In this document: piece after piece, positions 32,869 through 62,183 of the stretch
Position numbering within the stretch: position 1 is the stretch's first letter
Layout: the number at the start of each line of letters is the position of its first letter
Source of the DNA: Escherichia phage W143
Direction: 5' to 3' (one strand)
DNA length: 64,000 bases
Sequence record: MZ189262.1
Program-made: the position numbers and the translations under genes
Notes under the pieces: generated by a model
What the model was told of the DNA's origin: nothing
The model's input: the letters and a program-made list of their open reading frames with translations, nothing else
Databases searched by the model: none

Positions 32869-32871
32869 AGC

Positions 32872-34459
<1,588 letters not shown>

Positions 34460-34488
34460 AATAAAATGGGCCTTGCGGCCCACTCCTT
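34460..34488 (-). promoter_or_regulatory. structured RBS of denA: SD AAGGAG, GC hairpin, A/T spacer, ATG
   Basis: SD AAGGAG (plus 34483-34488, overlapping nrdB stop TAA), hairpin GGGCC-GCAA-GGCCC (34468-34481), then ATTTTATT and ATG 34459; same layout as the gene 38 RBS at 54393-54424. Confidence 0.5.
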
Positions 34489-35665: not shown

Positions 35666-35716
35666 AAATTTTCCGCTTAGTTAATAGATAGTGACTCGTC
35701 CGTGAGTCAAATTATA

Positions 35717-37981: not shown

Positions 37982-38298
37982 AAGTCCTCAACTTGAAAAT
38001 CGTCTTTAAACAATCGGTTAACTATATGAGCTATTATATCACCATGACACGGCTTTGGTTTACATGTGCATCCTAGCCTCATTCCACGTAAAGGCTCTAA
38101 ATGTGCTTTAGTTATTTCTCCGGATTTAATTCGACGTATAAAATCTTTTTTGAATAATTCAATGGCAGCCTCCCGGCTGCCAGCATCTTTACCGACGTAA
38201 TTTCCCCAAAATGTACCACGGTGAATATTAACATCAAAGTCGGATTTATATTTATTCACTACCTGGCATAGACGGCCCGCGCGGTGATAATTCGTCAT
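37972..38298 (-). CDS. nrdA.1: hypothetical protein (T4 nrdA.1 position), Cys/His cluster
   Basis: 108 aa; segment [12 protein letters not shown] suggests a metal-binding fold. Confidence 0.7.
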
Positions 38299-38515
38299 AT
38301 TGTTTTTCCGTTAAAACAGTAATATCATAGTAACAATCTGAAGAAGTTTTAACTGTAGAAATTTTATTATCAAAATACTCACGAGTCATTTTATGAGTAT
38401 AATATTTTTTGCCATAAATGATAATAGGCTGATTTGGTCCTGGAACTTCTAACTCACTTGGATTAGGAAGTGTAAAAAGAACTACACCTGAAGTATCTTT
38501 AAATCGTAAAATCAT
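38252..38515 (-). CDS. nrdA.2: hypothetical protein (T4 nrdA.2 position)
   Basis: 87-aa ORF. Confidence 0.6.
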
Positions 38516-38538
38516 ATATCCTCACAATTAATAATTAA

Positions 38539-39399: not shown

Positions 39400-39443
39400 T
39401 TAGTACCTTATATAAATTATAATACATTTTATGAAGCTAATAA

Positions 39444-39791
39444 TCAATACGGTTTAGCATCAAATTTTCTTTCGATTTCAGGAGTGAAATATAATTCTTT
39501 ACCACGTTTGGAAAAACGACCAATAATATGATAATTATTCTCATCAAACGTGATATTGCCAATATCCATAGCTTTCAACCAAATATCGATATTTCTATCC
39601 AGCTTTATATCAAAATTCCAATACGGAGAACTATTACCAAAAATACTACAAGCGGATTCAGTGAAACAACTGCTATAAATTTTGTCTTTAGGAACTACTA
39701 ATTGATAGACGCCTTTAATAAACTGAGGACCCTGCCATTTTGGTTGTTTCGCGTCTTTTTCTAATAGAATAGGGTAATAATTAAAGTTCAT
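39444..39791 (-). CDS. hypothetical protein, 115 aa, between frd and td
   Basis: ORF MNFNYYPILLEKDAKQPKWQGPQFIKGVYQL... from ATG 39791; ORF-track start is GTG at 39803; 20 nt downstream of frd stop. Confidence 0.6.
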   Translation of the reverse strand: MNFNYYPILLEKDAKQPKWQGPQFIKGVYQLVVPKDKIYSSCFTESACSIFGNSSPYWNFDIKLDRNIDIWLKAMDIGNITFDENNYHIIGRFSKRGKELYFTPEIERKFDAKPY

Positions 39792-39811
39792 ATTTTCCGC
39801 CACGCGTTATT

Positions 39812-40638
<827 letters not shown>

Positions 40639-40648
40639 ATTATTTTCC

Positions 40649-40891
40649 TTAAACAGACTTTTTCACAATTTTCCAATCAGCTTTAAACTGTTCAACATCA
40701 GAATGGTAAATCCAAAACCCTGCGCTTTCTCCATCCTCATAAAGAGGGCATCCATCGCATTCATCTTCCCATCCCATATCACGCAAAAGAAGTTCAGCTT
40801 TTTCAACAAGTTCAGAATCTTTACCGATGATATTAAAATACCATTTACCTCTAACTTCTGAATCTTTGATGCTCTGGCGTTGTAATCTCAT
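40649..40891 (-). CDS. frd.2: hypothetical protein (frd.2 region)
   Basis: 80-aa ORF with early promoter GTTTAC-N18-TACTAT upstream. Confidence 0.65.
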   Translation of the reverse strand: MRLQRQSIKDSEVRGKWYFNIIGKDSELVEKAELLLRDMGWEDECDGCPLYEDGESAGFWIYHSDVEQFKADWKIVKKSV

Positions 40892-40916
40892 TTTATTCTC
40901 CTCAGTTGATAGGGTA

Positions 40917-40946
40917 ATAGTATCACACTACTACCCTTCTGTAAAC
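40917..40946 (-). promoter_or_regulatory. early promoter GTTTAC-N18-TACTAT
   Basis: -35 GTTTAC (plus 40941-40946), -10 TACTAT (plus 40917-40922), upstream of ORF starting at 40891. Confidence 0.65.
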
Positions 40947-41311
40947 TACTTTTTGAAAGTTTTTCGTAAAAGTTCAATGATTTCGTCTACATTGTTTTCG
41001 TCAACAATACAGTGAATTTTTGTTACGCCAGAAACCTTGTCTTCAACTTCATCTTTTTCAGAAGTCGGTTCTTTATATTCACGGAAACAATGAAATTCGT
41101 CTTCACAGACGTTAAAGTAAAAATGCTTTCCATTTGCGCATTCAATGTGTTTTATTACTCTAAATCCATCAGCAAAGAAAGCTTCTTTAACTTCAAACCA
41201 TCCGCCATTATCTCGAATAGCTTTAACTATTGATGAATTAGAACGCGGGCGATAATTAATAAATGTATCAATAAGTCTTGGAACAAGTTCATATTTTCTA
41301 CCAATATACAT
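40946..41311 (-). CDS. frd.3: hypothetical protein (frd.3 region)
   Basis: 121-aa ORF. Confidence 0.65.
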   Translation of the reverse strand: MYIGRKYELVPRLIDTFINYRPRSNSSIVKAIRDNGGWFEVKEAFFADGFRVIKHIECANGKHFYFNVCEDEFHCFREYKEPTSEKDEVEDKVSGVTKIHCIVDENNVDEIIELLRKTFKK

Positions 41312-41355
41312 TGTGTTTTCCTCATTTTAATAGGGGCTTGATAGCCCCTTAATAA

Positions 41356-41583
41356 TTACTGCTCAATAAATCCTGTGTAAAATTCTACATCTTCAGCATC
41401 CATACCGTCACAATATTCATTAACCATAAATTGTTTAAGACGATTTAAAGGACCTTCAATAACAACTGAAACATTGCAATTGGGGTCATTTAGTGCGCTT
41501 GTAATACGGAGTTCAGGATAACGATTACGAATAATTTCTTCAATATATTCAAAATCAACAACATCAATATCAATTTTAGCCAT
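41356..41583 (-). CDS. hypothetical acidic protein, 75 aa
   Basis: [25 protein letters not shown]... from ATG 41583 with GAGGA SD 8 nt upstream; ORF-track start at 41604 lacks an RBS. Confidence 0.6.
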
Positions 41584-41626
41584 GTTATTTTCCTCTTTAA
41601 TCATCAGCAGTATTGCCGATAGTTGT

Positions 41627-41656
41627 ATAGTACCATAAAGCTTTATGCTTGTAAAC
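41627..41656 (-). promoter_or_regulatory. early promoter GTTTAC-N18-TACTAT downstream of the gene 32 terminator
   Basis: -35 GTTTAC (plus 41651-41656), -10 TACTAT (plus 41627-41632). Confidence 0.65.
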
Positions 41657-41671
41657 AGTTTTGTGAAAAAA

Positions 41672-44564: not shown

Positions 44565-45482
44565 TCAAAATTCGTTAATGCTATTAGTTAATTTAGAAAG
44601 ACCCGCTTTTACAAAATATGAATAAATTTTGCCACGCGGTGGTAATTTATATGAATTATAGTAATTCACAATGTTTGAAGCAATATTATCAGGAATATAA
44701 TCAAAATCAATTAGAACTAAATTTTCTTTATAACGATTATATTCAGATTCAGTGAGAAGCACCTTAGCTTGCTCACGGTCATTAGCAATAGCTTCAACAA
44801 CAGATGTTTTCATTGAAGGAGTTCGTTCACCTTCAACTCTAGTAAACCAAAAGTCAGATCGTACTTTAACTGAAGCAACGTTATCCTTTTTATCGCCTTT
44901 AAGGATTTTAGTCATACAGTCAATTTCAGCAGAACCGCTTTTAATTTTAACCCATTTCTTGTGCATCGGTGACCATTGCTTAACGTTTGGGTATTTATGA
45001 AGTTGAGTAAAGTCACCATCCGATGAAATGATTAAAATTTTATGTCCTTCTAAAGAGAACTTTTTAACAAGAACAGCAATGTGATCATCTGCTTCATACT
45101 TATCAATATCCATAACAATGTATGGCATATAAGCTTTCAATTCATCTATAACTTTATGACTGGATTCAAAATAACCTTCCCAGTCCCAAGTAGATTCTTC
45201 TCGTGCTTTTCCACGGTTTTTCTTATAGTAATAAGCGAAATCACGACGCCAGTATCCAGATTTCGCGTTATCGATACACAGTATAATTTTAGTGTATCCA
45301 AGAGTTTTTGCTTTTTTAACATTGAACTTAATTGAGTTCAATATCAAATGACGAACCATTGATAAATTAATTTTTTCTTTATCTGGAAAGTTTACTAAAG
45401 CAGTTGAAAGCGCAATTTGACTAAAGTCAATTAAGCAAATTCCTTCTTTGTAATCTTCATCCAGCATCATTTCTAAATCCAT
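44565..45482 (-). CDS. rnh: RNase H (5'-3' exonuclease, FEN family)
   Basis: 305 aa from ATG 45482 (MDLEMMLDEDYKEGICLIDF...) with GAGG SD; ORF-track TTG start at 45497 is an over-extension. Confidence 0.95.
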   Translation of the reverse strand: MDLEMMLDEDYKEGICLIDFSQIALSTALVNFPDKEKINLSMVRHLILNSIKFNVKKAKTLGYTKIILCIDNAKSGYWRRDFAYYYKKNRGKAREESTWDWEGYFESSHKVIDELKAYMPYIVMDIDKYEADDHIAVLVKKFSLEGHKILIISSDGDFTQLHKYPNVKQWSPMHKKWVKIKSGSAEIDCMTKILKGDKKDNVASVKVRSDFWFTRVEGERTPSMKTSVVEAIANDREQAKVLLTESEYNRYKENLVLIDFDYIPDNIASNIVNYYNSYKLPPRGKIYSYFVKAGLSKLTNSINEF

Positions 45483-45544
45483 ATGAACCTCGTTCAATTA
45501 GTGAGATTTCTATTATATACTATCCAAATCTTAAAGTAAACAAG

Positions 45545-45552
45545 TATAAATA
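45545..45552 (+). promoter_or_regulatory. late promoter TATAAATA for gene 34
   Basis: Exact TATAAATA 35 nt upstream of gp34 ATG 45587; SD AGGAG at 45572-45576. Confidence 0.8.
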
Positions 45553-45586
45553 CTTATTATTGAAAACACAATAGGAGCCCGGGAGA

Positions 45587-48500
45587 ATGGCCGAGATTAA
45601 AAGAAAGTTCAGAGCAGAAGATGGTCTGGACGCAGGTGGCGATAAAATAATCAACGTAGCTTTAGCTGATCGTACCGTAGGAACTGACGGTGTTAACGTT
45701 GATTACTTAATTCAAGAAAACACAGTTCAACAATACGATCCAACTCGTGGATATTTAAAAGATTTTGTAATCATTTATGATAACCGCTTTTGGGCTGCTA
45801 TAAATGATATTCCAAAACCAGCAGGAGCTTTTAATAGCGTACGCTGGAGAGCATTACGTACTGATGCTAATTGGACAACTGTTTCATCAGGACCTTATCA
45901 ATTAAAGTCAGGCGAATCAATTTCAGTTGATACTGCATCTGGTAATGACATTACATTTACTTTACCATCTTCCCCAATTGATGGAGATACTATCGTTCTC
46001 CAAGACATTGGAGGAAAACCTGGAGTTAACCAAGTTTTAATTACAGCTCCGGTGCAAAGCATTGTAAATTTTAGAGGTCAGCAAGTACGATCAGTACTAA
46101 TGACTCATCCAAAATCGCAGATAGTTTTAATTTTTAGTAATCGTCTGTGGCAAATGTATGTTGCTGATTATAGCAGAGAAGCTGCAATTGCAACACCAGC
46201 GAATACTTATCAAGCGCAATCCAACGATTTTATCGTACGTAGATTTACTTCTGCTGCACCAATTAATGTTAAACTTCCAAGATTTGCTAATCATGGCGAT
46301 ATTATTAATTTCGTCGATTTAGATAAACTAAATCCGCTTTATCATACAATTGTTACTACATACGATGAAACGACTTCAATACAAGAAGTTGGAACTCATT
46401 CCATTGAAGGCCGTACAACGATTGACGGTTTCTTGATGTTTGATGATAATGAGAAATTGTGGAGATTGTTTGACGGGGATAGTAAAGCGCGTTTACACAT
46501 TATAACGACTAATTCTAATATTCGTCCAAATGAAGAAGTTATGGTATTTGGTGCGAATAACGGAACAGCTCAGACAATTGAACTTCAGCTTCCGACTGAT
46601 ATTTCTGTTGGTGATACTGTTAAAATTTCCATGAATTACATGAGAAAAGGACAAACAGTTAAAATCAAAGCTGCTGATGAAGATAAAATTGCTTCTTCAG
46701 TTCAATTGCTGCAATTCCCAAAACGCTCAGAATATCCGCCTGAAACTAAATGGGTAACTGTCCAAGAATTAGTTTTTAATGGCGAAACTAATTATGTTCC
46801 AGTTTTAGAGCTTGCTTATATAGAAGATTCTGATGGAAAATACTGGGTTGTACAGCAAAACGTTCCAACTGTAGAAAGAGTAGATTCTTTAAATGATTCT
46901 ACTAGAGCAAGATTAGGCGTAATTGCTTTAGCTACACAAGCTCAAGCTAATGTCGATTTAGAAAATTCTCCACAAAAAGAATTGGCAATTACTCCAGAAA
47001 CATTAGCTAACCGTACTGCTACAGAAACTCGCAGAGGTATCGCAAGAATAGCAACTACTGCTCAAGTGAATCAGAACACCACATTCTCTTTTGCAGATGA
47101 CCTTATCATTACTCCTAAAAAGCTGAATGAAAGAACTGCTACAGAAACTCGTAGAGGTGTTGCTGAAATTGCTACGCAGCAAGAAACTAATACAGGAACC
47201 GATGATACTACAATCATTACTCCTAAAAAGCTTCAAGCTCGTCAAGGTTCTGAATCATTATCTGGTATTGTAACTTTTGTATCTACTGCAGGTGCTACTC
47301 CAGCTTCTAGCCGTGAATTAAATGGTACGAATGTTTATAATAAAAACACTAATAATTTAGTTGTTTCACCTAAAGCTTTGGATCAGTATAAAGCTACTCC
47401 AACGCAGCAAGGTGCAGTAATTTTAGCAGTTGAAAGTGAAGTAATTGCTGGACAAAGTCAGCAAGGATGGGCAAATGCTGTTGTAACGCCAGAAACGTTA
47501 CATAAAAAGACATCAACTGATGGAAGAATTGGTTTAATTGAAATTGCTACGCAAAGTGAAGTTAATACAGGAACTGATTATACTCGTGCAGTCACTCCTA
47601 AAACTTTAAATGGTCGTAAAGCAACTGAAAGTTTAAGTGGTATAGCTGAAATTGCTACGCAAGTTGAATTCGACGCAGGCGTCGACGATACTCGTATCTC
47701 TACACCATTAAAAATTAAAACTAGATTTAATAGTACTGATCGTACTTCTGTTGTTGCTCTATCTGGATTAGTTGAATCAGGAACTCTCTGGGACCATTAT
47801 ACCCTTAATATTCTTGAAGCAAATGAGACACAACGTGGTACACTTCGTGTGGCTACGCAAGTTGAAGCTGCTGCAGGAACATTAGATAATGTTTTAATAA
47901 CTCCTAAAAAGCTTTTAGGTACTAAATCTACTGAAGCACAGGAAGGCGTTATTAAGGTTGCAACTCAGTCTGAAACTGTAGCTGGAACGTCAGCAAATAC
48001 TGCTGTATCTCCAAAAAATTTAAAATGGATTGTGCAGAGTGAACCTACTTGGGCAGCTACTACTCTGGTAAGAGGTTTTGTTAAAACTTCATCCGGTTCT
48101 ATTACATTCGTTGGTAATGATACAGTCGGTTCTACACAGAACTTAGAGCTATATGAGAAAAATAGCTATGCAGTATCACCATATGAATTAAACCGTGTAT
48201 TAGCAAATTATTTGCCGTTAAAAGCAAAAGCTGCTGATACAAATTTATTGGATGGTCTAGATTCATCCCAGTTCATTCGTAGGGATATTGCACAGACGGT
48301 TAATGGTTCACTAACCTTAACCCAGCAAACGAATCTGAGTGCCCCTCTTGTATCATCTAGTACTGCTACGTTCGGTGGATCAGTTTCGGCAAATAGTACA
48401 TTAACTATTTCTAATACTGGAACGGCAACTCGTCTGATTTTTGAGAAAGGACCTCAAACTGGAACTAACCCAGCACAGACGATGACTATCAGAGTATGGG

Positions 48501-49456
48501 GAAATCAGTTTGGCGGCGGCTCGGATACGACTCGTTCTACCGTGTTTGAAGTTGGCGATGAAACATCTCATCACTTTTATTCTCAACGCAATAAAGATGG
48601 TAGTATAGCGTTTATCATTAATGGTACTGTAATGCCAATAAATGTTAATGCTTCCGGTTTGATGAATGTGAATGGCACTGCAACATTCGGTCGTTCAGTT
48701 ACAGCCAATGGTGAATTCATTAGCAAATCATCGAATGCTTTTAGAGCTATTAGTGGTAATTACGGATTCTTTATTCGTAATGATGGTGCTAATGTCTATT
48801 TTATGCTAACTAATTCAAGTGACCAAACTGGTGGTTTTAATGGATTACGTCCTTTAGCTATTAACAATGCATCCGGTCAAGTAACGATTGGTGAAGGCTT
48901 AATCGTTGCCAAAGGTGTTACTATAAACTCAGGTGGCTTAACTGTTAACTCGAGAATTCGTTCTCAGGGCATTAAAACATCTGACTTATATACCCGTGCG
49001 CCAACATCTGATACTGTAGGATTCTGGTCAATTGACATTAATGATTCAGCTACTTATAACCAGTTCCCAGGTTATTTTAAAATGGTTGAAAAAACTAATG
49101 AGGTGACTGGACTTCCATACTTAGAACGTGGAGAAGAGGTTAAATCTCCTGGTACATTGACTCAATTTGGTAATACACTTGATTCTCTTTACCAAGATTG
49201 GATTACTTATCCAACAACTCCAGAAGCGCGTACCACTCGCTGGACACGTACATGGCAGAAAACCAAAAACTCCTGGTCAAGTTTTGTTCAGGTATTTGAC
49301 GGAGGTAACCCTCCTCAACCATCTGATATCGGTGCTTTACCATCTGATAATGCTACAATGGGGAATCTTACTATTCGTGATTTCTTACGAATTGGTAATG
49401 TTCGCATTATTCCTGACCCAGTGAATAAAACGGTTAAATTTGAATGGGTTGAATAA
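45587..49456 (+). CDS. 34: long tail fibre proximal subunit gp34
   Basis: 1289 aa with repeated beta-rich ATQxExNxGTDDTxxITPKKL-type motifs; same length as T4 gp34. Confidence 0.95.
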   Translation: MAEIKRKFRAEDGLDAGGDKIINVALADRTVGTDGVNVDYLIQENTVQQYDPTRGYLKDFVIIYDNRFWAAINDIPKPAGAFNSVRWRALRTDANWTTVSSGPYQLKSGESISVDTASGNDITFTLPSSPIDGDTIVLQDIGGKPGVNQVLITAPVQSIVNFRGQQVRSVLMTHPKSQIVLIFSNRLWQMYVADYSREAAIATPANTYQAQSNDFIVRRFTSAAPINVKLPRFANHGDIINFVDLDKLNPLYHTIVTTYDETTSIQEVGTHSIEGRTTIDGFLMFDDNEKLWRLFDGDSKARLHIITTNSNIRPNEEVMVFGANNGTAQTIELQLPTDISVGDTVKISMNYMRKGQTVKIKAADEDKIASSVQLLQFPKRSEYPPETKWVTVQELVFNGETNYVPVLELAYIEDSDGKYWVVQQNVPTVERVDSLNDSTRARLGVIALATQAQANVDLENSPQKELAITPETLANRTATETRRGIARIATTAQVNQNTTFSFADDLIITPKKLNERTATETRRGVAEIATQQETNTGTDDTTIITPKKLQARQGSESLSGIVTFVSTAGATPASSRELNGTNVYNKNTNNLVVSPKALDQYKATPTQQGAVILAVESEVIAGQSQQGWANAVVTPETLHKKTSTDGRIGLIEIATQSEVNTGTDYTRAVTPKTLNGRKATESLSGIAEIATQVEFDAGVDDTRISTPLKIKTRFNSTDRTSVVALSGLVESGTLWDHYTLNILEANETQRGTLRVATQVEAAAGTLDNVLITPKKLLGTKSTEAQEGVIKVATQSETVAGTSANTAVSPKNLKWIVQSEPTWAATTLVRGFVKTSSGSITFVGNDTVGSTQNLELYEKNSYAVSPYELNRVLANYLPLKAKAADTNLLDGLDSSQFIRRDIAQTVNGSLTLTQQTNLSAPLVSSSTATFGGSVSANSTLTISNTGTATRLIFEKGPQTGTNPAQTMTIRVWGNQFGGGSDTTRSTVFEVGDETSHHFYSQRNKDGSIAFIINGTVMPINVNASGLMNVNGTATFGRSVTANGEFISKSSNAFRAISGNYGFFIRNDGANVYFMLTNSSDQTGGFNGLRPLAINNASGQVTIGEGLIVAKGVTINSGGLTVNSRIRSQGIKTSDLYTRAPTSDTVGFWSIDINDSATYNQFPGYFKMVEKTNEVTGLPYLERGEEVKSPGTLTQFGNTLDSLYQDWITYPTTPEARTTRWTRTWQKTKNSWSSFVQVFDGGNPPQPSDIGALPSDNATMGNLTIRDFLRIGNVRIIPDPVNKTVKFEWVE

Positions 49457-49464
49457 GAGGTATT

Positions 49465-50580
49465 ATGGAAAAATTTATGGCAGAGTTTGGACAAGGATAT
49501 GTCCAAACGCCATTTTTATCGGAAAGTAATTCAGTAAGATATAAAATAAGTATAGCGGGTTCTTGCCCACTTTCTACAGCAGGACCGTACGTTAAATTTC
49601 AGGATAATCCCGTCGGAAATCAAGCATTTAATGCAGGTCTTCATTTAAGAGTTTTTGACCCTTCTACAGGAGCATTAGTTGATAGTAAGTCATATGCTTT
49701 TTCGACTTCAAATGATACTACATCAGCTGCTTTTGTTAGTTTCATGAATTCTTTGACGAATAATAGACTTGTTGCTATATTAACTAACGGAAAAGTTAAT
49801 TTTCCTCCTGAAGTAGTATCTTGGATAAGAGCCGCAGGAACGTCTGCTTTTCCATCTGATTCTATATTGTCAAGATTCGACGTATCATATGCTGCTTTTT
49901 ACACTTCTTCTAAAAGAGCTATTGCATTAGAGCATGTTAAATTAAGTAATAGAAAAAGCACAGATGATTATCAAACTATTTTAGATGTTGTATTTGACAG
50001 TTTAGAAGATGTTGGAGCTACAGGATTTCCTAAAAGAACGTATGAAAGCGTTGATCAATTTATGTCGGCAGTTGGCGGAACTAATAACGAAATTGCGCGA
50101 TTACCAACTTCAGCTGCTATAAGTAAACTCTCTGATTATAATTTAATTCCTGGCGATGTTCTTTATCTTAAAGCTCAGTTATATGCCGATGCTGATTTAC
50201 TTGCGCTTGGAACCACAAATATATCTATCCGTTTTTATAACGCATCTAATGGATATATTTCCTCGACACAAGCTGAGTTTACCGGGCAAGCTGGGTCTTG
50301 GGAATTAAAAGAAGATTATGTAGTTGTTCCAGAAAACGCTGTCGGATTTACGATATATGCACAAAGAACATCACAAGCTGGTCAAGGTGGCATGAGAAAT
50401 TTAAGCTTTTCTGAAGTGTCAAGAAATGGGGGTATTTCGAAACCTGCTGAATTTGGCGTCAATGGCATTCGTGTTAATTATATCTGTGAATCTGCTTCAC
50501 CTCCGGATATAATGGTACTTCCTACACAAGCATCGTCTAAAACTGGTAAAGTGTTTGGGCAAGAATTTAGAGAAGTATAA
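49465..50580 (+). CDS. 35: long tail fibre hinge protein gp35
   Basis: 371-aa ORF immediately after gene 34. Confidence 0.9.
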   Translation: MEKFMAEFGQGYVQTPFLSESNSVRYKISIAGSCPLSTAGPYVKFQDNPVGNQAFNAGLHLRVFDPSTGALVDSKSYAFSTSNDTTSAAFVSFMNSLTNNRLVAILTNGKVNFPPEVVSWIRAAGTSAFPSDSILSRFDVSYAAFYTSSKRAIALEHVKLSNRKSTDDYQTILDVVFDSLEDVGATGFPKRTYESVDQFMSAVGGTNNEIARLPTSAAISKLSDYNLIPGDVLYLKAQLYADADLLALGTTNISIRFYNASNGYISSTQAEFTGQAGSWELKEDYVVVPENAVGFTIYAQRTSQAGQGGMRNLSFSEVSRNGGISKPAEFGVNGIRVNYICESASPPDIMVLPTQASSKTGKVFGQEFREV

Positions 50581-50585
50581 ATTGA

Positions 50586-50614
50586 GGGAGCCTTCGGGTT
50601 CCCTTTTTTTTCTT
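50586..50614 (+). terminator. intrinsic terminator after gene 35
   Basis: GGGAGCC-TTCG-GGTTCCC hairpin followed by a T9 run. Confidence 0.8.
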
Positions 50615-50622
50615 TATAAATA
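50615..50622 (+). promoter_or_regulatory. late promoter TATAAATA for gene 36
   Basis: Exact TATAAATA directly after the terminator, 24 nt upstream of gp36 ATG 50646. Confidence 0.8.
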
Positions 50623-50645
50623 CTATTAAAATAAAGGGGCATACA

Positions 50646-51308
50646 ATGGCTGATTTAAAAGTAGGTTCAACAACTGGAGGCTCTGTCATTTGGCATCAAG
50701 GAAATTTTCCATTGAATCCAGCCGGTGACGATGTACTCTATAAATCATTTAAAATATATTCAGAATATAATAAACCACAAGCTGCAGATAACGATTTCGT
50801 TTCTAAAGCTAATGGTGGTACTTATGCCGCGACTGTTCGATTTAATGGAGGAGTACATGTTCCTACTATAGGTAGTAGTCAACAGTGCGGTGTTTATCCA
50901 GGTAACGGTGATGCAGCTACTTTTGCTATGGCAAATATTGACATCGTTTCGTGGAATGGTATTGGTTTTAAATCATCACAAGGTTCAGCAGACCGAACTG
51001 TTGTAATTAATGCACGTAATGGTGATATTAGTACAAAAGGCGTTGTGACAGCAGTAGGTCAAATAAGAAGTAATGCAGTTTCTCCTGTATCAGCAAATGA
51101 CCTTACTAGAAAAGACTATGTTGATGGAGCAATAAATACTGTTACGGCAAATGCGAACTCTAGAGTGTTACGATCTGGTGACACTATGATTGGTAACTTA
51201 ACTGCGCCAAACTTTTTCTCGCAGAATCCTGCATCCCAACCTTCACATGTTCCACGATTTGACCAAATCGTAATTAAGGATTCTGTTCAAGATTTCGGCT
51301 ATTATTAA
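50646..51308 (+). CDS. 36: long tail fibre distal connector gp36
   Basis: 220-aa ORF; position and size as T4 gp36. Confidence 0.9.
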
Positions 51309-51316
51309 GAGGACTT

Positions 51317-54300
51317 ATGGCTACTTTAAAACAAATACAATTTAAAAGAAGCAAAACCGCAGGTGCACGTCCTGCTGCTTCAGTATTAGCCGAAGGTGAA
51401 TTGGCTATAAACTTAAAAGATAGAACAATTTTTACTAAAGATGATTTAGGAAATATCATTGATCTGGGTTTTGCTAAAGGTGGGCAGGTTGATGGAAATA
51501 TCACTCAAATTGGAGATTATACACAGACCGGAAAATTTAATTTAATTGGCCCACAAATTGTAGAAAGCGGTGGATATATTGAGTTTAACTATCGTACTAC
51601 TGGAAGTGGGTCTTGGACTGGTCAACACACCGCAAAAGCTCCAATTTTTGTAGATTTAAGCTCATCTACTTCCACATCTGAATATAATCCTATAATTAAA
51701 CAACGCTTTAAAGATGGAACTTTTTCATTAGGTACTTTAGTTTCTGAAGGTTCGTTGAAGATTCATTATATCAATGAATCTGGTGATTCGAAATATTGGA
51801 CGTTTCGACGTGACGGTGGATTTACTGTTGACGGTGGAAGTTTAGCCGTATCAGGAGGTAGTATAACTACATCTGGAAACATCGCCGCGTTCGGAAATAT
51901 CACTTCACCACAAATTAATACTAAAAATATTATTTTAGATACAAAAGCATTCGGACAATATGATTCACAATCATTAGTTCAATATGTTTATCCTGGAACA
52001 GGTGAAGAAAATGGTATAAACTATCTTCGTAAAGTTCGAGCTAAATCAGGCGGAACTATTTACCATGAAATTGCTTCTGCGCAGACTGGTAAGAATGATG
52101 AAATTTCTTGGTGGACCGGAAATACACTTACTACTAAATTAATGGGTCTTCGTAATGATGGCGCAATGGTATTACGTCGTTCACTTGCTATTGGCACAAT
52201 TACCACTGATGAAAATACCAACAACTATGGTTCTCCTACTCCAATGGGAGAAAGATATATTGCTTTGGGTGATGCTGCAACCGGTTTAAAATATATTAAG
52301 CAAGGTGTTTATGATTTAGTAGGTAATTGGAATTCTGTTGCTTCTATTACTCCTGATAGTTTCCGTAGTACTCGTAAAGCATTATTTGGACGTTCAGAAG
52401 ACCAAGGCGCTACATGGAACATGCCTGGAAACAACGCCGCGCTTTTATCGGTTCAAACACAAGCTGATGGAAACACTGCTGGCGACGGTCAAACCCACAT
52501 TGGATATAATTCTGGTGGTAAAATGAACCACTATTTTCGTGGTACAGGCCAGATGAATATCAATACCCAGCAAGGTACGGAAATTAACCCGGGTATTTTG
52601 AAATTGGTAACTGGCTCTAATAATGTACAGTTTTATGCCGATGGAACTATTTCTTCTATCCAACCTGTTAAATTAGACAACGAATTATTTTTAAATAGTT
52701 CTAATAATACTGCAGGACTTAAATTTGGCGCCCCTAGCAAAGTTGATGGCTCGAGAATTATCCAATGGAATGCCGGGACCCGTGCAGGACAAAATAAAAA
52801 TTATCTGGTTATGAAAGCTTGGGGTAATGCATTCGACTCCACTGCCGGTAATCGCGAAACTGTATTTGAATTATACGATAGTCAGGGCTATCATTTTTAT
52901 TCTCAACGTTTAGCTCCAACGGGTTCTGAAACTGTCGGTGCTCTTCAATTTAGAATTTCCGGCGCTTTACGTGTGGGTGGTGATATTATATCAGCTGGTT
53001 CTATTGTTAGTGAATCAAGTTTAGTTGCAAATAATGGATTGTCTGTAAATGGTCAAGCTAAATTCGGTGGAACAGCAAATGCATTGAGAATTTGGAATGC
53101 TGAATATGGTGCCATTTTCCGTCGTTCAGAAAATAACTTTTATATTATTCCAACCAATCAAAATGAAGGCGAAAGTGGAGACATTCACAGCTCTTTGAGA
53201 CCTGTGAGAATAGGATTAAACGATGGTATGGTTGGATTAGGAAGAGATTCTTTTATAGTAGATCAAAATAATGCTTTAACTACTATAAACAGTAACTCTC
53301 GCATTAATGCCAACTTTAGAATGCAATTAGGACAAAATGCTTATATAGATATTGAGGCTTCTGACGGCGTTCGTCCAGCAGGTTGTGGTTCATTTGCATC
53401 TCAGAATTACGAAGACGTCAGAGCTCCAATTTATATGAATATAAAGCGTACTTCTACTTCTGAATATATTCCCATTGTTAAACAACGGTATGTAAATGGT
53501 GATAGTACTTATTCTATTGGCACCTTAATTTCTCAAGGAGACTTCCGCGTCCATTATCACCAGGGTACTAGTACTACCGGTACTGATTTAAGTTGGGAAT
53601 TCCGTCGCACAGGCGATTTCCGCGCGGCTGGTAAAATTATTGCAGGTTCAGCTCAATTAGGTACTGATGGTAATATTACTGGTGGTTCTGGTAATTTTGC
53701 TAACTTAAACAGTACAATTGAATCACTTAAAACTGATATTGTTTCAAGTTATCCAATTGGTGCTCCGATTCCTTGGCCTACTGATACACCTCCTGAAGGT
53801 TATGCCATAATGGAAGGTCAGACTTTTGATAAGTCTGCATATCCAAAGTTAGCTGTTGCATATCCTAGTGGTGTTATTCCAGATATGCGTGGACAAACTA
53901 TCAAGGGTAAACCAAGTGGACGTGCTGTGTTAAGTGCTGAAGCCGATGGTATTAAGTCTCATAGCCATAGTGCATCTGCTTCAAGTACTGACTTAGGCAC
54001 TAAAACCACATCAAGCTTTGACTATGGTACGAAGGGCACTAATAGTGCTGGTCATCACGCACACTCTGGTAGTGGTTCTACCAGCACAAATGGTGAGCAC
54101 GTTCACGCCATCGAGGCATGGAACGGGACTGGTGCAGGTGGTAATAAGATGTCATCATATGCCGTCGCGTATAGGGCGGGTGGGAGTAACACTAATTCAG
54201 CAGGGAGCCACAGCCACACTTTCTCTTTTGGGACTAGCGGTGCTGGCGACCATTCCCACTCTGTAGGCATTGGTGCTCACAGCCACACGGTAGCGATTGG

Positions 54301-54394
54301 TTCGCATGGTCATACTATCACTGTAAATAGTACAGGTAATACAGAAAACACGGTTAAAAACATTGCTTTTAACTATATCGTTCGTTTAGCATAA
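51317..54394 (+). CDS. 37: long tail fibre distal subunit gp37 (receptor-binding tip)
   Basis: 1025 aa; C-terminal His-rich HxH repeats ([52 protein letters not shown]) and ending [11 protein letters not shown] as in T4 gp37. Confidence 0.95.
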
Positions 54395-54424
54395 GGAGAG
54401 GGGCTTCGGCCCCTTCTAAATATG
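54393..54424 (+). promoter_or_regulatory. structured (split) ribosome-binding site of gene 38
   Basis: SD AAGGAG (54393-54398, overlapping gp37 stop) then hairpin GGGGC-TTCG-GCCCC (54400-54413) then TTCTAAAT and ATG 54422; known T4 gene 38 arrangement. Confidence 0.7.
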
Positions 54425-54973
54425 AAAATCTATCATTATTATTTTGACACAAAAGAATTTTACAAAGAAGAAAATTACAAACCGATTAAAGGTCTTGGTC
54501 TTCCTGCTCATTCAACAATTAAAAAACCTTTAGAACCTAAAGAAGGATACGCGGTTGTATTTGATGAACGTATTCAGGATTGGATTTATGAAGAAGACCA
54601 TCGCGGCAAACGAGCATGGACTTTTAATAAAGAAGAAATTTTTATAAATGACATTGGAAGCCCAGTTGGTATAACTTTTGATGAACCCGGCGAATTTGAC
54701 ATATGGACTGATGATGGTTGGAAAGAAGATGAAACATATAAACGGGTTTTAATTCGTAATAGAAAAATTGAAGAATTATATAAAGAATTCCAAGTATTGA
54801 GTAATATGATCGAAGCTTCAGCTGCAAATAAAAAGGAAAAATTCTATCATCAAAACCTTAAACGGTTCTTTGCTCTTTTAGAAAAGCATGAGCATTTAGG
54901 TGGTGAATTCCCTGCATGGCCTGAAAAAGAACGGAAGCCTTGGTATAAGCGTTTATTCAAGCATTACGTATAA
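54422..54973 (+). CDS. 38: tail fibre assembly chaperone gp38 (T4 type)
   Basis: 183 aa, MKIYHYYFDTKEFYKEENYKPIKGLGLPAHSTIKKP...; matches T4 gp38 rather than the longer T2/T6-type adhesin. Confidence 0.92.
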   Translation: MKIYHYYFDTKEFYKEENYKPIKGLGLPAHSTIKKPLEPKEGYAVVFDERIQDWIYEEDHRGKRAWTFNKEEIFINDIGSPVGITFDEPGEFDIWTDDGWKEDETYKRVLIRNRKIEELYKEFQVLSNMIEASAANKKEKFYHQNLKRFFALLEKHEHLGGEFPAWPEKERKPWYKRLFKHYV

Positions 54974-54976
54974 ATA
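54969..54976 (+). promoter_or_regulatory. late promoter TATAAATA for holin gene t
   Basis: Exact TATAAATA 18 nt upstream of ATG 54995; SD AAGGAGG at 54983-54989. Confidence 0.75.
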
Positions 54977-54994
54977 TCTTAAAAAGGAGGGTCT

Positions 54995-55651
54995 ATGGCA
55001 GCACCTAGAATATCATTTTCGCCCTCTGATATTCTGTTGGGTGTTCTAGATCGCTTGTTCAAAGATAACGCTACCGGGAAAGTTCTTGCTTCCCGGGTAG
55101 CTGTCGTAATTCTTTTGTTTATAATGGCGATTGTTTGGTATAGGGGAGATAGTTTCTTTGAGTACTATAAGCAATCAAAGTATGAAACATACAGTGAAAT
55201 TATTGAAAAGGAAAGAACTGCACGCTTTGAATCTGTCGCCCTGGAACAACTCCAGATAGTTCATATATCATCTGAGGCAGACTTTAGTGCGGTGTATTCT
55301 TTCCGCCCTAAAAACTTAAACTATTTTGTTGATATTATAGCATATGAAGGAAAATTACCTTCAACAATAAGCGAAAAATCACTTGGAGGATATCCTGTTG
55401 ATAAAACTATGGATGAATATACAGTTCATTTAAATGGACGTCACTATTATTCCAATTCAAAATTTGCTTTTTTACCAACTAAAAAGCCTACTCCTGAAAT
55501 AAATTACATGTACAGTTGTCCATATTTCAATTTGGATAATATCTATGCTGGAACAATAACCATGTACTGGTATAGAAATGATCATATAAGTAATGACCGC
55601 CTTGAATCAATATGTTCTCAGGCGGCCAGAATATTAGGAAGGGCTAAATAA
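54995..55651 (+). CDS. t: holin T
   Basis: 218 aa; single N-terminal TM (VAVVILLFIMAIVWY) and large periplasmic domain; matches T4 holin. Confidence 0.95.
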   Translation: MAAPRISFSPSDILLGVLDRLFKDNATGKVLASRVAVVILLFIMAIVWYRGDSFFEYYKQSKYETYSEIIEKERTARFESVALEQLQIVHISSEADFSAVYSFRPKNLNYFVDIIAYEGKLPSTISEKSLGGYPVDKTMDEYTVHLNGRHYYSNSKFAFLPTKKPTPEINYMYSCPYFNLDNIYAGTITMYWYRNDHISNDRLESICSQAARILGRAK

Positions 55652-55924
55652 TTATTTGTTTGTATACATCTCTAGATATCGATATACGCCCTCAAAACCC
55701 TCGTTGAATTCGTCGATGAGGGTTTTCTTATCTTCTTGAGTTAATTCAGAAACAATTTTACGGAATGAATTCTGATTTAACTTTCTACCTTCATGCGTTA
55801 CTCCAATCTCATTCAGAAATGCAATAAAATTAGCACGATTCTCAACAATATCTTCTCTGGAAAATTTAATCAAAATAGACGCAACAGTAATAATTTCACG
55901 AACTGTATCAATGTTTTTATTCAT
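55652..55924 (-). CDS. asiA: anti-sigma70 factor AsiA
   Basis: 90 aa, MNKNIDTVREIITVASILIKFSREDIVENRANFIAFLNEIG...; matches T4 AsiA. Confidence 0.95.
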   Translation of the reverse strand: MNKNIDTVREIITVASILIKFSREDIVENRANFIAFLNEIGVTHEGRKLNQNSFRKIVSELTQEDKKTLIDEFNEGFEGVYRYLEMYTNK

Positions 55925-55936
55925 TAACTACACCAC

Positions 55937-56089
55937 TCAATTAGTTGACTTTATTATAATATCATCAGACACTTGATTTGTAAACTGGTCTGTGTTATTT
56001 TCTTCAAAAATTTTTTCTACGAATTCCTTGAACAACTCACGTTCCTGGGCTACATTATGCTCGATTACCTTTTCAAGATTATGACTCAT
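55937..56089 (-). CDS. small acidic protein, 50 aa
   Basis: Hand-translated MSHNLEKVIEHNVAQERELFKEFVEKIFEENNTDQFTNQVSDDIIIKSTN; ATGA overlap with arn stop. Confidence 0.5.
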   Translation of the reverse strand: MSHNLEKVIEHNVAQERELFKEFVEKIFEENNTDQFTNQVSDDIIIKSTN

Positions 56090-56364
56090 TCGAAATAATC
56101 TTCAATTTCGTAATCATGGACATAAATCATTATAGTTTTTAATACATCATCAATACTTTTTCCTGGAGCTGGAATTACGTAAAAATATCCCGCCTTTGAG
56201 TTATCTTTATAAGTTCCAACCAAGAAATCATTATTCTCAAGATGTAGTTCTTCAACTAATTCATCGACAATTGAGTGGTATAAATTTGGTAGAAACTTAT
56301 ATAGCTTTTCTAGAATGTCAATTTTGATTGTATATTGAACCACAGATTGAGAATCAATAATCAT
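56086..56364 (-). CDS. arn: Arn-like anti-restriction protein
   Basis: 92-aa acidic ORF in T4 arn position directly downstream of asiA; size as T4 Arn. Confidence 0.75.
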   Translation of the reverse strand: MIIDSQSVVQYTIKIDILEKLYKFLPNLYHSIVDELVEELHLENNDFLVGTYKDNSKAGYFYVIPAPGKSIDDVLKTIMIYVHDYEIEDYFE

Positions 56365-56473
56365 AGACCTTCCCCTTATGTTTCTGTTTGCGATTAGATT
56401 CTTTAAACGCTTTCTTCTTATCTTTATGGACAGAAGCTTTATTAAAATTATGTTTTGCGACTAAATTGTTCAT
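56354..56473 (-). CDS. possible lysine-rich peptide, 39 aa
   Basis: Hand-translated MNNLVAKHNFNKASVHKDKKKAFKESNRKQKHKGKVYDY; overlaps arn start and the 3' end of the 72-aa ORF; RBS weak. Confidence 0.3.
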   Translation of the reverse strand: MNNLVAKHNFNKASVHKDKKKAFKESNRKQKHKGKVYDY

Positions 56474-56666
56474 AGTGCTGAATTACCTCTCTTAAGCATT
56501 TGCATGTGAATGAAAACTTTTTAGCTACACCACATTCAAATATATGTTCTCTTAAATCACATGTGTCAGTATATCCCATCTCAACAATAAAATGCCGTAT
56601 TAGATTTTTATCTTTATCATTGAGAGAGTTAAAATAATCGGATTTTGAATTAATTTCCCTGGCCAA
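56448..56666 (-). CDS. hypothetical protein, 72 aa, Cys-rich
   Basis: ORF MAREINSKSDYFNSLNDKDKNLIRHFIVEMGYTDTCDLREH... Confidence 0.6.
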   Translation of the reverse strand: MAREINSKSDYFNSLNDKDKNLIRHFIVEMGYTDTCDLREHIFECGVAKKFSFTCKCLREVIQHYEQFSRKT

Positions 56667-56946
56667 ATTGAATCACCTTCAGTTGACGTTTTAGTTCTTT
56701 TATCATCTCTTCGTTCATCGCAATATAAAGATCGCGTAAAGCAGGCTTTAACATTCCATTTATTGGGGAACTAAATGGACATACATAATCTTTTCCTACG
56801 AGCTTTTTAGTGAATTCCATATTACAGAACTGAAATGCCGGTTCATTGGCATAAATTCCCCAATTAGTTGACATCATTTTATTGGCATATTCCAACGCCT
56901 GGATTTGATTAGTAATTCCGTCAATTTGAAACTTTTTAATATTCAT
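56650..56946 (-). CDS. hypothetical protein, 98 aa
   Basis: [26 protein letters not shown]... Confidence 0.65.
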   Translation of the reverse strand: MNIKKFQIDGITNQIQALEYANKMMSTNWGIYANEPAFQFCNMEFTKKLVGKDYVCPFSSPINGMLKPALRDLYIAMNEEMIKELKRQLKVIQFGQGN

Positions 56947-57407
56947 TAGTAAAGGTCCTCAGAGTAAAGTTCTTTTTCACTACCACCACGTTCAATACGT
57001 ACTTGTCCAGCGTAAGTTGCAATAATCATTGCTTCTTCACGTGTCCAATAATTACTATATTGGTCAATAAACCCTTGGTCATCATCACAAACTTGCTGAG
57101 TAACTAATTGAGGTTTAACTACATCTAAAACTGCTGCCATATCTTTAGAATAATGACGAGCACCCGGAATAACAAGAATTCGTCCATCTTTTAATTTAAA
57201 ACGGTTGGCTGCGCAAACAATCCGTCGTTGATACTTTTGGTTTTCATCCCAGTATGCGGTCTGCCAACAGATTTCAGGAACTTCATCTAAAACATTTTGT
57301 TCTGTGTATTCACCACTGTAAGAAGCTAATTTAGCAGCCAAACTTTCTGGAGTCTCACGTGACAAAGCTTTATCTAACAGAGCTAAACGTTCTTTAAAAG
57401 TTTTCAT
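56946..57407 (-). CDS. hypothetical protein, 153 aa
   Basis: [30 protein letters not shown]...; ATGA coupling with neighbours. Confidence 0.7.
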
Positions 57408-57733
57408 TTAAACCATCCTTTAATACGTTGCCACAAAGTTTTCTGTTGAGCTTTGTTAACACCAATTGAGCGAATAACTGATTGAGATTCCTGAAATTCT
57501 TTATAATCAGCAAGGTAAATTTCGTAAGCTGAATCCGTAAAGGAACTTATCGCTGCCATGAAATTATTGCGAATACCTACTGGAGCATCTTTACTTTCAC
57601 GAATAATCATGTATTTGCCAGTCTTAATCTTTACGATAGTTCCAAGATAAGCTCCATGATACCAGATGTCCCACCCCTCTTGAGTGGGTTCTGCACAACG
57701 ACGAAGTTCATTGATAATTTCTAACTTGTTCAT
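57404..57733 (-). CDS. hypothetical protein, 109 aa
   Basis: [34 protein letters not shown]... Confidence 0.65.
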
Positions 57734-57743
57734 TATTTATTCC

Positions 57744-58379
57744 TCACAGTTCAGATGCTACGGTGATTACAGCTTCAATGTTTTCTGCCGAGCGTTTAAT
57801 GTCAAGATACACATTACCGTTTTTAGCGATTTTACATGACATTCCGATATCAGTAAATTTCTGAATATGATGTTCCATCATTTTGTATCCAAAAATTCGC
57901 ATATTTCCATTGTTGTTAATTTCAAAATTACGAATTCCGTGAGTGCGTTTTTCTAAAATAGCAAGATAGTTACTACGATAAGTTTCAACCTTTTTAAGAA
58001 CAAATCCATTTTCATCTAAAAGTTTTAGCATGAGGTCTTTATCTTCTTCCATATCGGAAGTAATCTCGCGAGCTTTACGAGTTGCTCGTTTTTTCAGCAG
58101 TTCCGGAGCATTTTCCTGTGCGTATAAAGTTGCTGCATTTGAAATAATATCCTGAGCTTCACCAGTAATGATTAATCCATCACCAGATTTCTCCACCAGG
58201 CCTTTTTTAATCAATACCCCAATATTACTATTAACTACTGCATTACCTAAATCTGGATGCACCTCACGAACTTCTGCAGCTGTAATGAAATCTTTCTTAG
58301 CAATGGTAATTAAAATCGCAGCAGTTTTTTCATTCAGAACATCGTTAGAAGCTTTGATGATGTAAGTTACTTTAGACAT
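57744..58379 (-). CDS. motA: MotA middle-transcription activator
   Basis: 211 aa, MSKVTYIIKASNDVLNEKTAAILITIAKKDFITAAEVREVHPDLG...; matches T4 MotA. Confidence 0.95.
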   Translation of the reverse strand: MSKVTYIIKASNDVLNEKTAAILITIAKKDFITAAEVREVHPDLGNAVVNSNIGVLIKKGLVEKSGDGLIITGEAQDIISNAATLYAQENAPELLKKRATRKAREITSDMEEDKDLMLKLLDENGFVLKKVETYRSNYLAILEKRTHGIRNFEINNNGNMRIFGYKMMEHHIQKFTDIGMSCKIAKNGNVYLDIKRSAENIEAVITVASEL

Positions 58380-58420
58380 TTTCTAATCTCCGTAATTCTG
58401 TATCAGTAGTTGATAGTTGT

Positions 58421-58450
58421 ATAGTACCACAGTATGCTTTGGTTGTAAAC
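58421..58450 (-). promoter_or_regulatory. early promoter (proximal copy) for motA
   Basis: -35 GTTTAC (plus 58445-58450), -10 TACTAT (plus 58421-58426). Confidence 0.7.
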
Positions 58451-58483
58451 CGTTTTGTGAAAAAAAAAATAGTTGATAGTTGT

Positions 58484-58513
58484 ATAGTACCACAGTATGC
58501 TTTGGTTGTAAAC
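58484..58513 (-). promoter_or_regulatory. early promoter (distal duplicated copy) for motA
   Basis: -35 GTTTAC (plus 58508-58513), -10 TACTAT (plus 58484-58489); exact copy of the proximal promoter. Confidence 0.65.
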
Positions 58514-58532
58514 CGTTTTGTGAAAAAAAAAA

Positions 58533-58565
58533 TTGAAATAAAAAAGGGAGAGCTGAGGCTCTCCC
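58533..58565 (-). terminator. intrinsic terminator after the gene 52 transcription unit
   Basis: GGGAGAGC-CTCA-GCTCTCCC hairpin (plus 58546-58565) followed on the minus strand by TTTTTTATTTCAA. Confidence 0.8.
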
Positions 58566-58570
58566 TAAAA

Positions 58571-58720
58571 TTACTGCATGACTGTGATAACTGTCATGAT
58601 AACACGTTGAATGCCGAACGCAAGAAGACCTCCTGCTACGGCTGGAACAACACCTAGCCCCGCTAGTAAAATGCCACCAGATACTAATGCCGCGCTTGTA
58701 ATACCAATGAATGGACTCAT
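58571..58720 (-). CDS. small hydrophobic peptide, 49 aa
   Basis: Hand-translated MSPFIGITSAALVSGGILLAGLGVVPAVAGGLLAFGIQRVIMTVITVMQ; ATGA overlap with gp52 stop; predicted membrane peptide. Confidence 0.5.
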   Translation of the reverse strand: MSPFIGITSAALVSGGILLAGLGVVPAVAGGLLAFGIQRVIMTVITVMQ

Positions 58721-60045
58721 TTGATTTCCTCTAAATCTTTGGTGTATTCGGTAACTACATCAGTAGTTTTCCAATATTCGTTTTCTTCTTTCTTAGCTTT
58801 AGCTTCTTCAGCAAGTTTCTTTGCTTCATCAGAAGTCATATGAAAAATATTCATTCCGACTAGTTTATCAACATAAGAAGAATACATCTCAATTTTAGAA
58901 AGTTCTTCGGTCAGTTCTTTACGAGTTTTACCCTGCACAACAATTTCACCTGAAATTACTTTCTTAATGAAATGCGCCTTGGCAAAGGCTAAACGAAATG
59001 CTGATTCAGTTTCTTTAATTTTGTTATCAATTCGTTTTTGGACATAAGTTTTACGAACTTCAACGAAGTCTTTGATTAAATCAACTACGTTATCGTAAAC
59101 TTGCAGCTTTCCTTTCTCATTAATGACTGTAATATTCTGGGAACGACGCTCAATCAACCCGAAGTCTTTCATGATTTTTGCATGGCGTTCTTCTTCGTTA
59201 TCGCTCAAAGAATATTCTTTACGGAATTTAACTTTAAAGCCAAAACCATGCTCGCCACAAGCATCATCCCACGTAATGAAGCCTTTATCTTCAAGCGGGT
59301 CTAAGATTTTACTCACATAAGTTTCACGATCATACTTATACGGAATCTCAGTGATATGCATTTGAGTTCGTGAAGTAAACTTGTACGTTCCACGAATTTC
59401 ATATTGACCGTCAATTTCAACGACTTCACCACGAAATTCTGGGAATTCTACCTTCGGTTTAGTTACTTTCTTTCCTTGAAGAGCTTGTAGTACAGCTTTC
59501 TTGACAGAAGAAACACTATGAGGAAGAATGTAAGTTGCATAACCAGTTGCAATACCGGAAACACCATTAAGAAGAACAGTAGGAATAATAGGCAAATAGA
59601 AAGCAGGCGGAATGTGTTCTTTATCTTGATGTACCGGGGCATATTCAGTATCTTTATATACGCTATAGAAATTTTTACTTACACGAGCAAAAATATAACG
59701 ACTTGCCGCTGCTTTTTGAACGGTACGAGAACCAAAGTTTCCTTGACCATCTAACAAAGGAAAGTTATTATTCCAAGTGTTAGCCATCAAAGCACCTGCG
59801 TCTTGTGCAGAGTTTTCACCATGATGATATCCAAGGTCAGCTACACCACCTGCAATAGAAGCAAGTTTGTGAAACTTATCTTTATTTCCTCGTGCTAAAT
59901 CAAGGGCTCGAGCAATAACAAACCGTTGAACTGGCTTAAATCCATCAATCATATTTGGAATAGCACGATTTTCAACCGTGTACATAGCATAAGCCAATGC
60001 TTCATTATCAATGATACTTTTTAAATCGCGATTATTCAGTTGCAT
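58717..60045 (-). CDS. 52: DNA topoisomerase II medium subunit gp52
   Basis: 442 aa, MQLNNRDLKSIIDNEALAYAMYTVENRAIPNMIDGFKPVQRFV... (GyrA-like breakage-reunion domain); matches T4 gp52. Confidence 0.95.
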   Translation of the reverse strand: MQLNNRDLKSIIDNEALAYAMYTVENRAIPNMIDGFKPVQRFVIARALDLARGNKDKFHKLASIAGGVADLGYHHGENSAQDAGALMANTWNNNFPLLDGQGNFGSRTVQKAAASRYIFARVSKNFYSVYKDTEYAPVHQDKEHIPPAFYLPIIPTVLLNGVSGIATGYATYILPHSVSSVKKAVLQALQGKKVTKPKVEFPEFRGEVVEIDGQYEIRGTYKFTSRTQMHITEIPYKYDRETYVSKILDPLEDKGFITWDDACGEHGFGFKVKFRKEYSLSDNEEERHAKIMKDFGLIERRSQNITVINEKGKLQVYDNVVDLIKDFVEVRKTYVQKRIDNKIKETESAFRLAFAKAHFIKKVISGEIVVQGKTRKELTEELSKIEMYSSYVDKLVGMNIFHMTSDEAKKLAEEAKAKKEENEYWKTTDVVTEYTKDLEEIK

Positions 60046-62100: not shown

Positions 62101-62134
62101 TTTATTCTCCAAATCCGTATCAGTTGATAGTTGT

Positions 62135-62164
62135 ATAGTACCACAGTCCTTGTGGTTTGTAAAC
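62135..62164 (-). promoter_or_regulatory. early promoter GTTTAC-N18-TACTAT, related to the motA promoter module
   Basis: -35 GTTTAC (plus 62159-62164), -10 TACTAT (plus 62135-62140); flanking sequence resembles the 63-bp motA repeat unit. Confidence 0.65.
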
Positions 62165-62183
62165 CGTTTTGTGAAATTTTTTT

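Follow-up and report, generated by a model that had tools for sequence, protein, structure and literature searches.

The early promoters of T4-type phages are described by Hinton as 'UP/-35/TGn/-10' promoters (PMC2988021), and the one that precedes motA is annotated in T4 (Z48569; Uzan, Brody and Favre 1990, cited in PMC3014915). Early promoters also form part of the PeSL cassettes of these phages, in which a stem-loop terminator is followed by an A/T-rich tract, a TTTACW-N17-TAYWAT promoter, a Shine-Dalgarno sequence and an ATG (Arbiol et al. 2010, PMC2839356; Comeau et al. 2014, PMC4122927). Through PeSLs, ORFs are described as being inserted, deleted and exchanged from one cassette to another. 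A promoter half doubled perfectly, head to tail and on its own, is not described, and this literature mentions only 'degraded, inappropriately spaced' copies (PMC4122927). Untrimmed terminal overlaps from k-mer assemblers are in turn a recognised artefact in phage genomes, to be trimmed before re-ordering (bioRxiv 10.64898/2026.07.08.737226).

We analysed 64,000 nt of Escherichia phage W143 (MZ189262.1; hereafter the window), which form the final 64 kb of a T4-like (Tequatrovirus) genome arranged like T4. The best DNA matches to the window are EP01 (95.6%) and T4 (93.5%). Because the window end coincides with the record ends of EP01 and RB59 (the T4 record ends 11 nt earlier), the genome must have been put into T4 orientation after assembly. 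Upstream of motA the deposited sequence contains two head-to-tail 63-nt units that are 100% identical (Table 1), so the perfect tandem duplication reported in the initial annotation is indeed present in the record. Identity at period 63 extends by 1 nt to the right (58533) and 0 nt to the left, and microhomology at the endpoints of the duplication amounts to 1 nt only. A pattern with two promoter cores across the duplication matched once in the window and in 0 of 100 shuffles, and the 64 kb contain no other long tandem repeat. Read on the minus strand, both copies have the layout TTTTTTTTTT-CACAAAACG-GTTTAC-AACCAAAGCATACTGTGG-TACTAT-ACAACTATCAACTA, in which the TTTTTTTTTT position is T10. The analyses below lead us to conclude that the second identical copy is most likely an assembly artefact and that the phage has one motA early promoter, like T4. 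The genuine element is the motA early promoter already known from T4, set in a cassette of known type (PeSL), and one of the two identical units probably reflects an overlap left untrimmed in assembly.

Table 1. Features around motA and related sites in the window, with the matching contigs of an independent assembly (SRR22354640)
Feature	Position in window	Strand	Details
gene 52	58717-60045	-	topoisomerase II medium subunit
motA.1	58571-58720	-	49-aa ORF between gene 52 and the terminator
Intrinsic-terminator hairpin after motA.1	58545-58566	-	9-bp stem with 6 G-C pairs, 4-nt loop, T-rich tail
Upstream (distal) unit	58470-58532	-	T10; -35 GTTTAC 58508-58513; -10 TACTAT 58484-58489; predicted start ~58477
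Junction of the two units		-	ATCAACTA / TTTTTTTTTTCACAAAAC
Downstream (proximal) unit	58407-58469	-	T10 58460-58469; -35 GTTTAC 58445-58450; TGG and -10 TACTAT 58421-58426; predicted start ~58414; counterpart of the motA early promoter annotated in T4
34-nt segment TGGTACTATACAACTATCAACTACTGATACAGAA	58396-58429	-	dispersed exact repeat common to other early promoters
motA Shine-Dalgarno GGAG	58388-58391	-	within GGAGATTAGAA
motA ATG	58377-58379	-	
motA	57744-58379	-	activator of middle transcription, 211 aa; Pfam MotA_activ and MotCF
Related early promoter 3' of denB	62122-62176	-	87% over 55 nt; 48/63 unit positions; 26-nt exact repeat 62122-62147
Related early promoter	41618-41671	-	46/63 unit positions; 18-nt exact match
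Contig _520	45317-58425 (fetched part)		16,799 nt; starts ACTATACAAC... in the promoter
Contig _3615	62133-58470		3,671 nt
Contig _1031	32839-41647		8,809 nt

Both units have the sigma-70 register TTTACA, a 17-nt spacer and TACTAT with TG upstream, preceded by an A/T-rich UP-like tract made up of T10 (~-55 to -46) and CACAAAACG (-45 to -37). Thus all features of a T4-type early promoter (-35 GTTTAC(A), 17-nt spacer, TGn, TAnnnT -10 and UP-like tract) are found in each copy, and judged by its sequence the unit is a complete T4-type early promoter of motA. The initial annotation was right on this point, as the -35 and -10 elements are the same as those annotated in T4 Z48569. The duplicated segment is wholly non-coding and contains the whole promoter from ~-55 to +8, that is, every element in Hinton's description. 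Identity to the annotated T4 promoter suggests that it could be used immediately after infection without phage proteins, and we expect it to be read by the host sigma-70 RNA polymerase at that time. GGAGATTAGAA agrees with the RegB cleavage consensus GGAGRAYARAA (PMC3014915) at 10 of 11 positions, and a RegB-type GGAG Shine-Dalgarno on the motA mRNA would limit MotA synthesis.

In T4 the sequence is identical to that of the window from TTTTTTCAC / TTTTTTCACAAAACGG to the ATG, which takes in the -35 GTTTACA, the spacer, TGG-TACTAT and the whole leader, and T4 also matches in the terminator stem and the GGAG Shine-Dalgarno. It differs in having one copy, in carrying AAAAATTTTTT in place of the window T10, and in its terminator loop (CGAG vs CTCA). 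The locus also agrees with the PeSL layout: a hairpin with its T tail lies directly 5' of the promoter, GGAG and ATG follow, and the stem AGGGA...TCCCT fits the AGNA...TCNT type of the PST and T4 PeSLs. The promoters had been placed just 3' of a gene 52 terminator; the terminator is there, but it follows motA.1 and not gene 52 directly.

We next compared the region with that of related phages. The best 60 matches to the 461-nt region each span 395-402 nt, which corresponds to one copy, and T4, EP01, NR1, fPS-2 and T6 could be placed in a single-copy alignment. In this alignment the promoter core and leader are invariant, two changes in T6 excepted, and the terminator hairpin has an invariant stem and a variable loop. 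The tract between the terminator tail and CACAAAACG (window 58533-58544 region) is polymorphic: T4, EP01 and T6 have AAAAATTTTTT (A5T6), and upstream of CACAAAACG the window has T10, fPS-2 has T11 and NR1 has AA followed by T12. When a 68-nt junction probe was searched against INPHARED, 431 records matched its halves and none covered at least 80% of it. Pattern scans for a duplication with a period of 46-76 nt found none in IMG/VR or the JGI metagenomes, the IMG/VR scan having little power with only three single-copy instances there. A similar duplication in related genomes, which would speak for a genuine event, was therefore seen in none of the 431 records and in neither metagenomic collection. 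The initial annotation had also named, as a refutation of its reading, the case in which all relatives share the duplication; this does not hold, as the relatives have one copy.

The region upstream of motA does vary in other ways. Four related assemblies that encode an identical MotA (MT515756.1, MZ726795.1 and two more) have a 75-aa ORF between a motA-type promoter and motA, and 3' of this ORF lies a second, different early promoter, GTTTAC-TTCTGCTTTAAACATGA-TACTAT (insert region 1032-1501 of the retrieved MT515756.1 segment). Since the insert brings a second promoter, motA would have two promoters ~340 nt apart in those relatives. The insert is flanked on both sides by the direct repeat CTATCAAATAAATGAACTGAAAC and looks like a PeSL-type cassette insertion; an ORF and promoter gained at this very site in the four assemblies is also the kind of indel expected of a PeSL.

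An independent view of the locus came from public sequencing data. In a gene-position index, the window's exact gp37 (1025 aa) occurs in one sample only, as a Logan contig of the SRA run SRR22354640. This run is an Illumina library of Bacillus licheniformis GN02 from Shanghai Biozeron (PMC10281168), and because the library is of Bacillus licheniformis, the T4-like contigs in it are presumably cross-sample carry-over at the sequencing provider. The library contains at least 29 kb of T4-like coliphage sequence 100% identical to the window. Three of its contigs are 100.000% identical to the window over 13,109 + 3,671 + 8,809 nt (25.6 kb) vs about 94-96% for the best relatives, from which we infer that the phage reads derive from the same stock as the deposit. 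The contigs come from the Logan k=31 de Bruijn assembly, and the contig graph here stands in for read-level evidence.

Contig _3615 runs from the terminator with its window-specific CTCA loop through TTTCAA, T10 and one unit into CTGATAC, where it ends. This whole string, with a single unit between TTTCAA and CTGATAC, is absent from the duplicated model. Read-level verification had been proposed in the initial annotation; in the nearest form that was run, this independent k=31 assembly of same-phage reads, the graph takes the single-copy path and not the duplication. We then simulated the k=31 graph, filling in the unseen remainder of the genome from EP01. With the single-copy sequence, _520 came out at exactly 16,799 nt and _3615 at its observed 3' end. 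In the simulation of the duplicated model, the upstream unitig would stop at ...GGTTTACAACC, and no such stop was observed. The fit of the single-copy simulation and the absence of this break argue for a graph without the junction as the major form. If the duplication were clonal, its junction k-mers should have sister-branch depth, so graph simplification would be expected to keep them. The independent support for the junction that a genuine duplication should find is thus not seen, _3615 being single-copy and the predicted break absent, and absence from an independent assembly of what appears to be the same stock, given the 100% identity over 25.6 kb, is what an overlap artefact predicts.

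The contig ends themselves can be largely traced to dispersed repeats. The 34-mer TGGTACTATACAACTATCAACTACTGATACAGAA takes in the motA promoter's downstream half, continues 11 nt into the leader, and occurs elsewhere in EP01 as a 34-mer at ~67.5 kb and a 33-mer at ~52.1 kb (17505-17538 and 2091-2159 of the retrieved segment). Contigs _520 and _3615 overlap by 26 nt because of this 34-nt exact repeat, as 2(k-1)-34, or 2x30-34 with k=31, equals 26. We considered low coverage, a 26-nt duplication, SNP bubbles and Tn5 hot spots as sources of the overlap, as well as RNA-seq, recombinant or chimeric reads and a smaller k, and rejected them all since the 34-nt repeat and the simulation account for the ends. 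Two of the four contig ends were attributed to exact repeats, each 31 nt or longer, that we could see, the 34-mer at the motA promoter and a 32-mer at 32837-32868. A 39-nt repeat at 41618-41656 is deduced from a 21-nt overlap of _1031 and _520 and from the EP01 paralogue, and for the contig end at 62133 we found no partner repeat, the simulation overshooting there (5,538 vs 3,671 nt). In at least seven unrelated public runs, k=31 contigs likewise end inside the motA promoter; they stop there because the 34-mer is a dispersed exact repeat.

A second copy of the unit could arise during assembly as follows. Neighbouring contigs in ABySS-type graphs overlap by k-1, and k=64 is a common upper choice. 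In a k=64 de Bruijn graph, adjacent unitigs would share k-1 = 63 nt. Length heterogeneity or read error giving T11 beside T10 would create a bubble that closes at the 63-mer beginning with T10, and on bubble closure one unitig would end with this 63-mer and the next begin with it. From a circularly permuted genome this would yield a linear contig with the T10-led 63-mer at both ends, and untrimmed rotation to the T4 origin, or end-to-end joining of contigs, would turn these ends into a tandem pair. We constructed the k=64 graph of the single-copy sequence with an added T11 allele and found that the motA-side unitig starts at the first T of the run, that the T10 branch ends in ...ATCAACTA, and that the 63-nt overlap of this branch with the motA-side unitig is the unit base for base. 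The boundaries of the duplication therefore lie at a graph vertex, with the unit starting at the first T of T10. Its length would suit an artefact, 63 being k-1 at k=64 with perfect identity, where k=64 is a guess that fits; both this value and the depositors' assembler are inferred. Biozeron also sequenced the genome of phage vB_EcoM_GXW16, which was assembled with ABySS and GapCloser (GXW16 paper).

The pair resembles terminal k-mer overlap artefacts in its perfect identity, its length, which would be k-1 if k was 64, its position at a graph vertex, its absence from relatives and from the independent assembly, and the re-orientation of the genome. It differs in place: such overlaps usually stand at both record ends and are taken for direct terminal repeats, whereas this one is internal, ~5.5 kb from the record end, and rotation or joining without trimming is therefore required. 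One argument against an artefact was its location. Of random 63-nt windows, no more than about 1.5-2.5% lie wholly outside coding sequence, so a non-coding position that takes in the whole promoter would favour a selected, real event if artefact sites were random. This argument loses force because the homopolymer-bubble model fixes the position of the artefact, and we dropped the non-coding location as evidence for a real event, the de Bruijn contigs of many T4-like phages breaking in the motA promoter in any case.

We weighed an assembly artefact against three explanations in which the second copy is real. It is doubtful that the duplication exists in even part of the stock. A genuine and very recent 63-bp tandem duplication fixed in the stock, which would place two identical strong early promoters 63 nt apart and yield somewhat more early motA mRNA, is unlikely. 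Such an event would account for the deposited sequence, for units that hold every recognised promoter element from ~-55 to +8, and for a segment that is entirely non-coding, as a viable insertion would be. Relatives show recombinational activity upstream of motA, where some carry the 75-aa ORF and second promoter, and no masking of the Shine-Dalgarno is predicted for the longer leader. Natural tandem promoters include rrn P1-P2 and T7 A1-A3. If real, the duplication would be like the tandem core-tac clusters, in which tandem core-promoter repeats raise expression in E. coli stepwise (PMC3293061), in having two complete sigma-70 promoters in series into one gene; unlike in tandem promoters, the footprint of the upstream polymerase would at 63 nt overlap the downstream UP region. 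Against fixation stand the single-copy k=31 contig of the same phage, which a clonal duplication must break at ...GGTTTACAACC, the absence of the junction from all 431 relatives, and the 1 nt of endpoint microhomology; nor does a fixed duplication predict a start at the first T of T10 or a length of k-1 at k=64. The further claim of the initial annotation, that a recent duplication gave motA tandem promoters and more MotA, is accordingly unsupported: the independent k=31 assembly takes the single-copy path, and unit length and boundaries are those of a k=64 unitig overlap.

The duplication might instead be real in part of the population, or in a passage other than the one that leaked into SRR22354640, with the depositors' assembler reporting that form; we regard this as distinctly unlikely. 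A duplication in a minority of genomes would vanish in graph simplification, which removes low-coverage branches, and the Logan contigs would then look as observed, a point that counts against an artefact. T4-type phages also recombine at early-promoter/terminator cassettes, and degraded, slipped promoter copies lie beside PeSLs in phage PST (PMC4122927). However, nothing positive points to junction reads, the major form is what an assembler would be expected to output, and the exact fit to a k-1 overlap would go unexplained. Least probable by far is a cassette remnant, in which a promoter-ORF-promoter-motA ancestor as in MT515756.1 lost the ORF and left its promoters adjacent. Relatives with the identical MotA do have the 75-aa ORF and a second early promoter in an insert flanked by CTATCAAATAAATGAACTGAAAC, but this promoter differs in spacer and upstream region whereas the window units are identical, and after homologous recombination of the flanking repeats a single copy would remain. 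This origin should have left foreign bases at the junction or some divergence of the two units, and neither is seen; the single-copy contig _3615 argues against any second copy.

With an assembly artefact as the preferred reading, the duplication has little consequence for phage biology and is instead a matter of data quality. Promoter or transcription-unit prediction from MZ189262.1 would wrongly give motA two promoters. When a short tandem repeat is perfect, has the length of a common k-1 and begins at a homopolymer, it should be treated as an untrimmed overlap unless reads disagree, and such overlaps may land inside records, not just at their ends, after rotation to a reference origin. A deposited genome can also be checked independently against contigs from unrelated public runs, here carry-over in a Bacillus library. 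Were the duplication real in part of the stock, it would represent a fresh 63-bp doubling of a very strong early promoter before the master activator of middle transcription, and a natural test both of whether abutting sigma-70 promoters with overlapping footprints add or interfere and of selection on MotA dosage.

We also looked at what the second copy changes in the deposited sequence. The leader longer by 63 nt has no significant fold (z = 0.82) and its Shine-Dalgarno is as in the short leader, so RNA structure was dropped as a consequence. Reading the sequence by eye, we saw no late promoter TATAAATA or MotA box newly made at the junction. The duplication does create two spurious ORFs with internally repeated peptides, of 72 aa (58439-58657, plus strand) and 36 aa (58383-58493, minus strand), where an automatic annotator could call genes.

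Finally, we placed the motA promoter among the other early promoters of the window. On the minus strand there are 13 GTTTAC-17/18-TAnnnT promoters with TG, the motA pair aligning with 11 others, and apart from the motA pair the closest spacing of two such promoters is 392 nt. Two sites that the initial annotation listed as related single copies (62111-62178 and 41615-41670) do belong to this family, but their sequences (48/63 and 46/63 unit positions) mark them as other early promoters of the motA-promoter subfamily and not as copies of the unit. Elsewhere in the window, two early promoters 15 kb apart (17699-17752 and 32815-32868, minus strand) are nearly identical over ~54 nt, a likeness far above what the promoter consensus needs. 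Within this stretch an exact repeat of 32 nt extends from the -35 across the spacer and the -10 TATAGT to the start region. A 28-nt exact repeat also links 19782-19809 and 21840-21867, ~2 kb apart.
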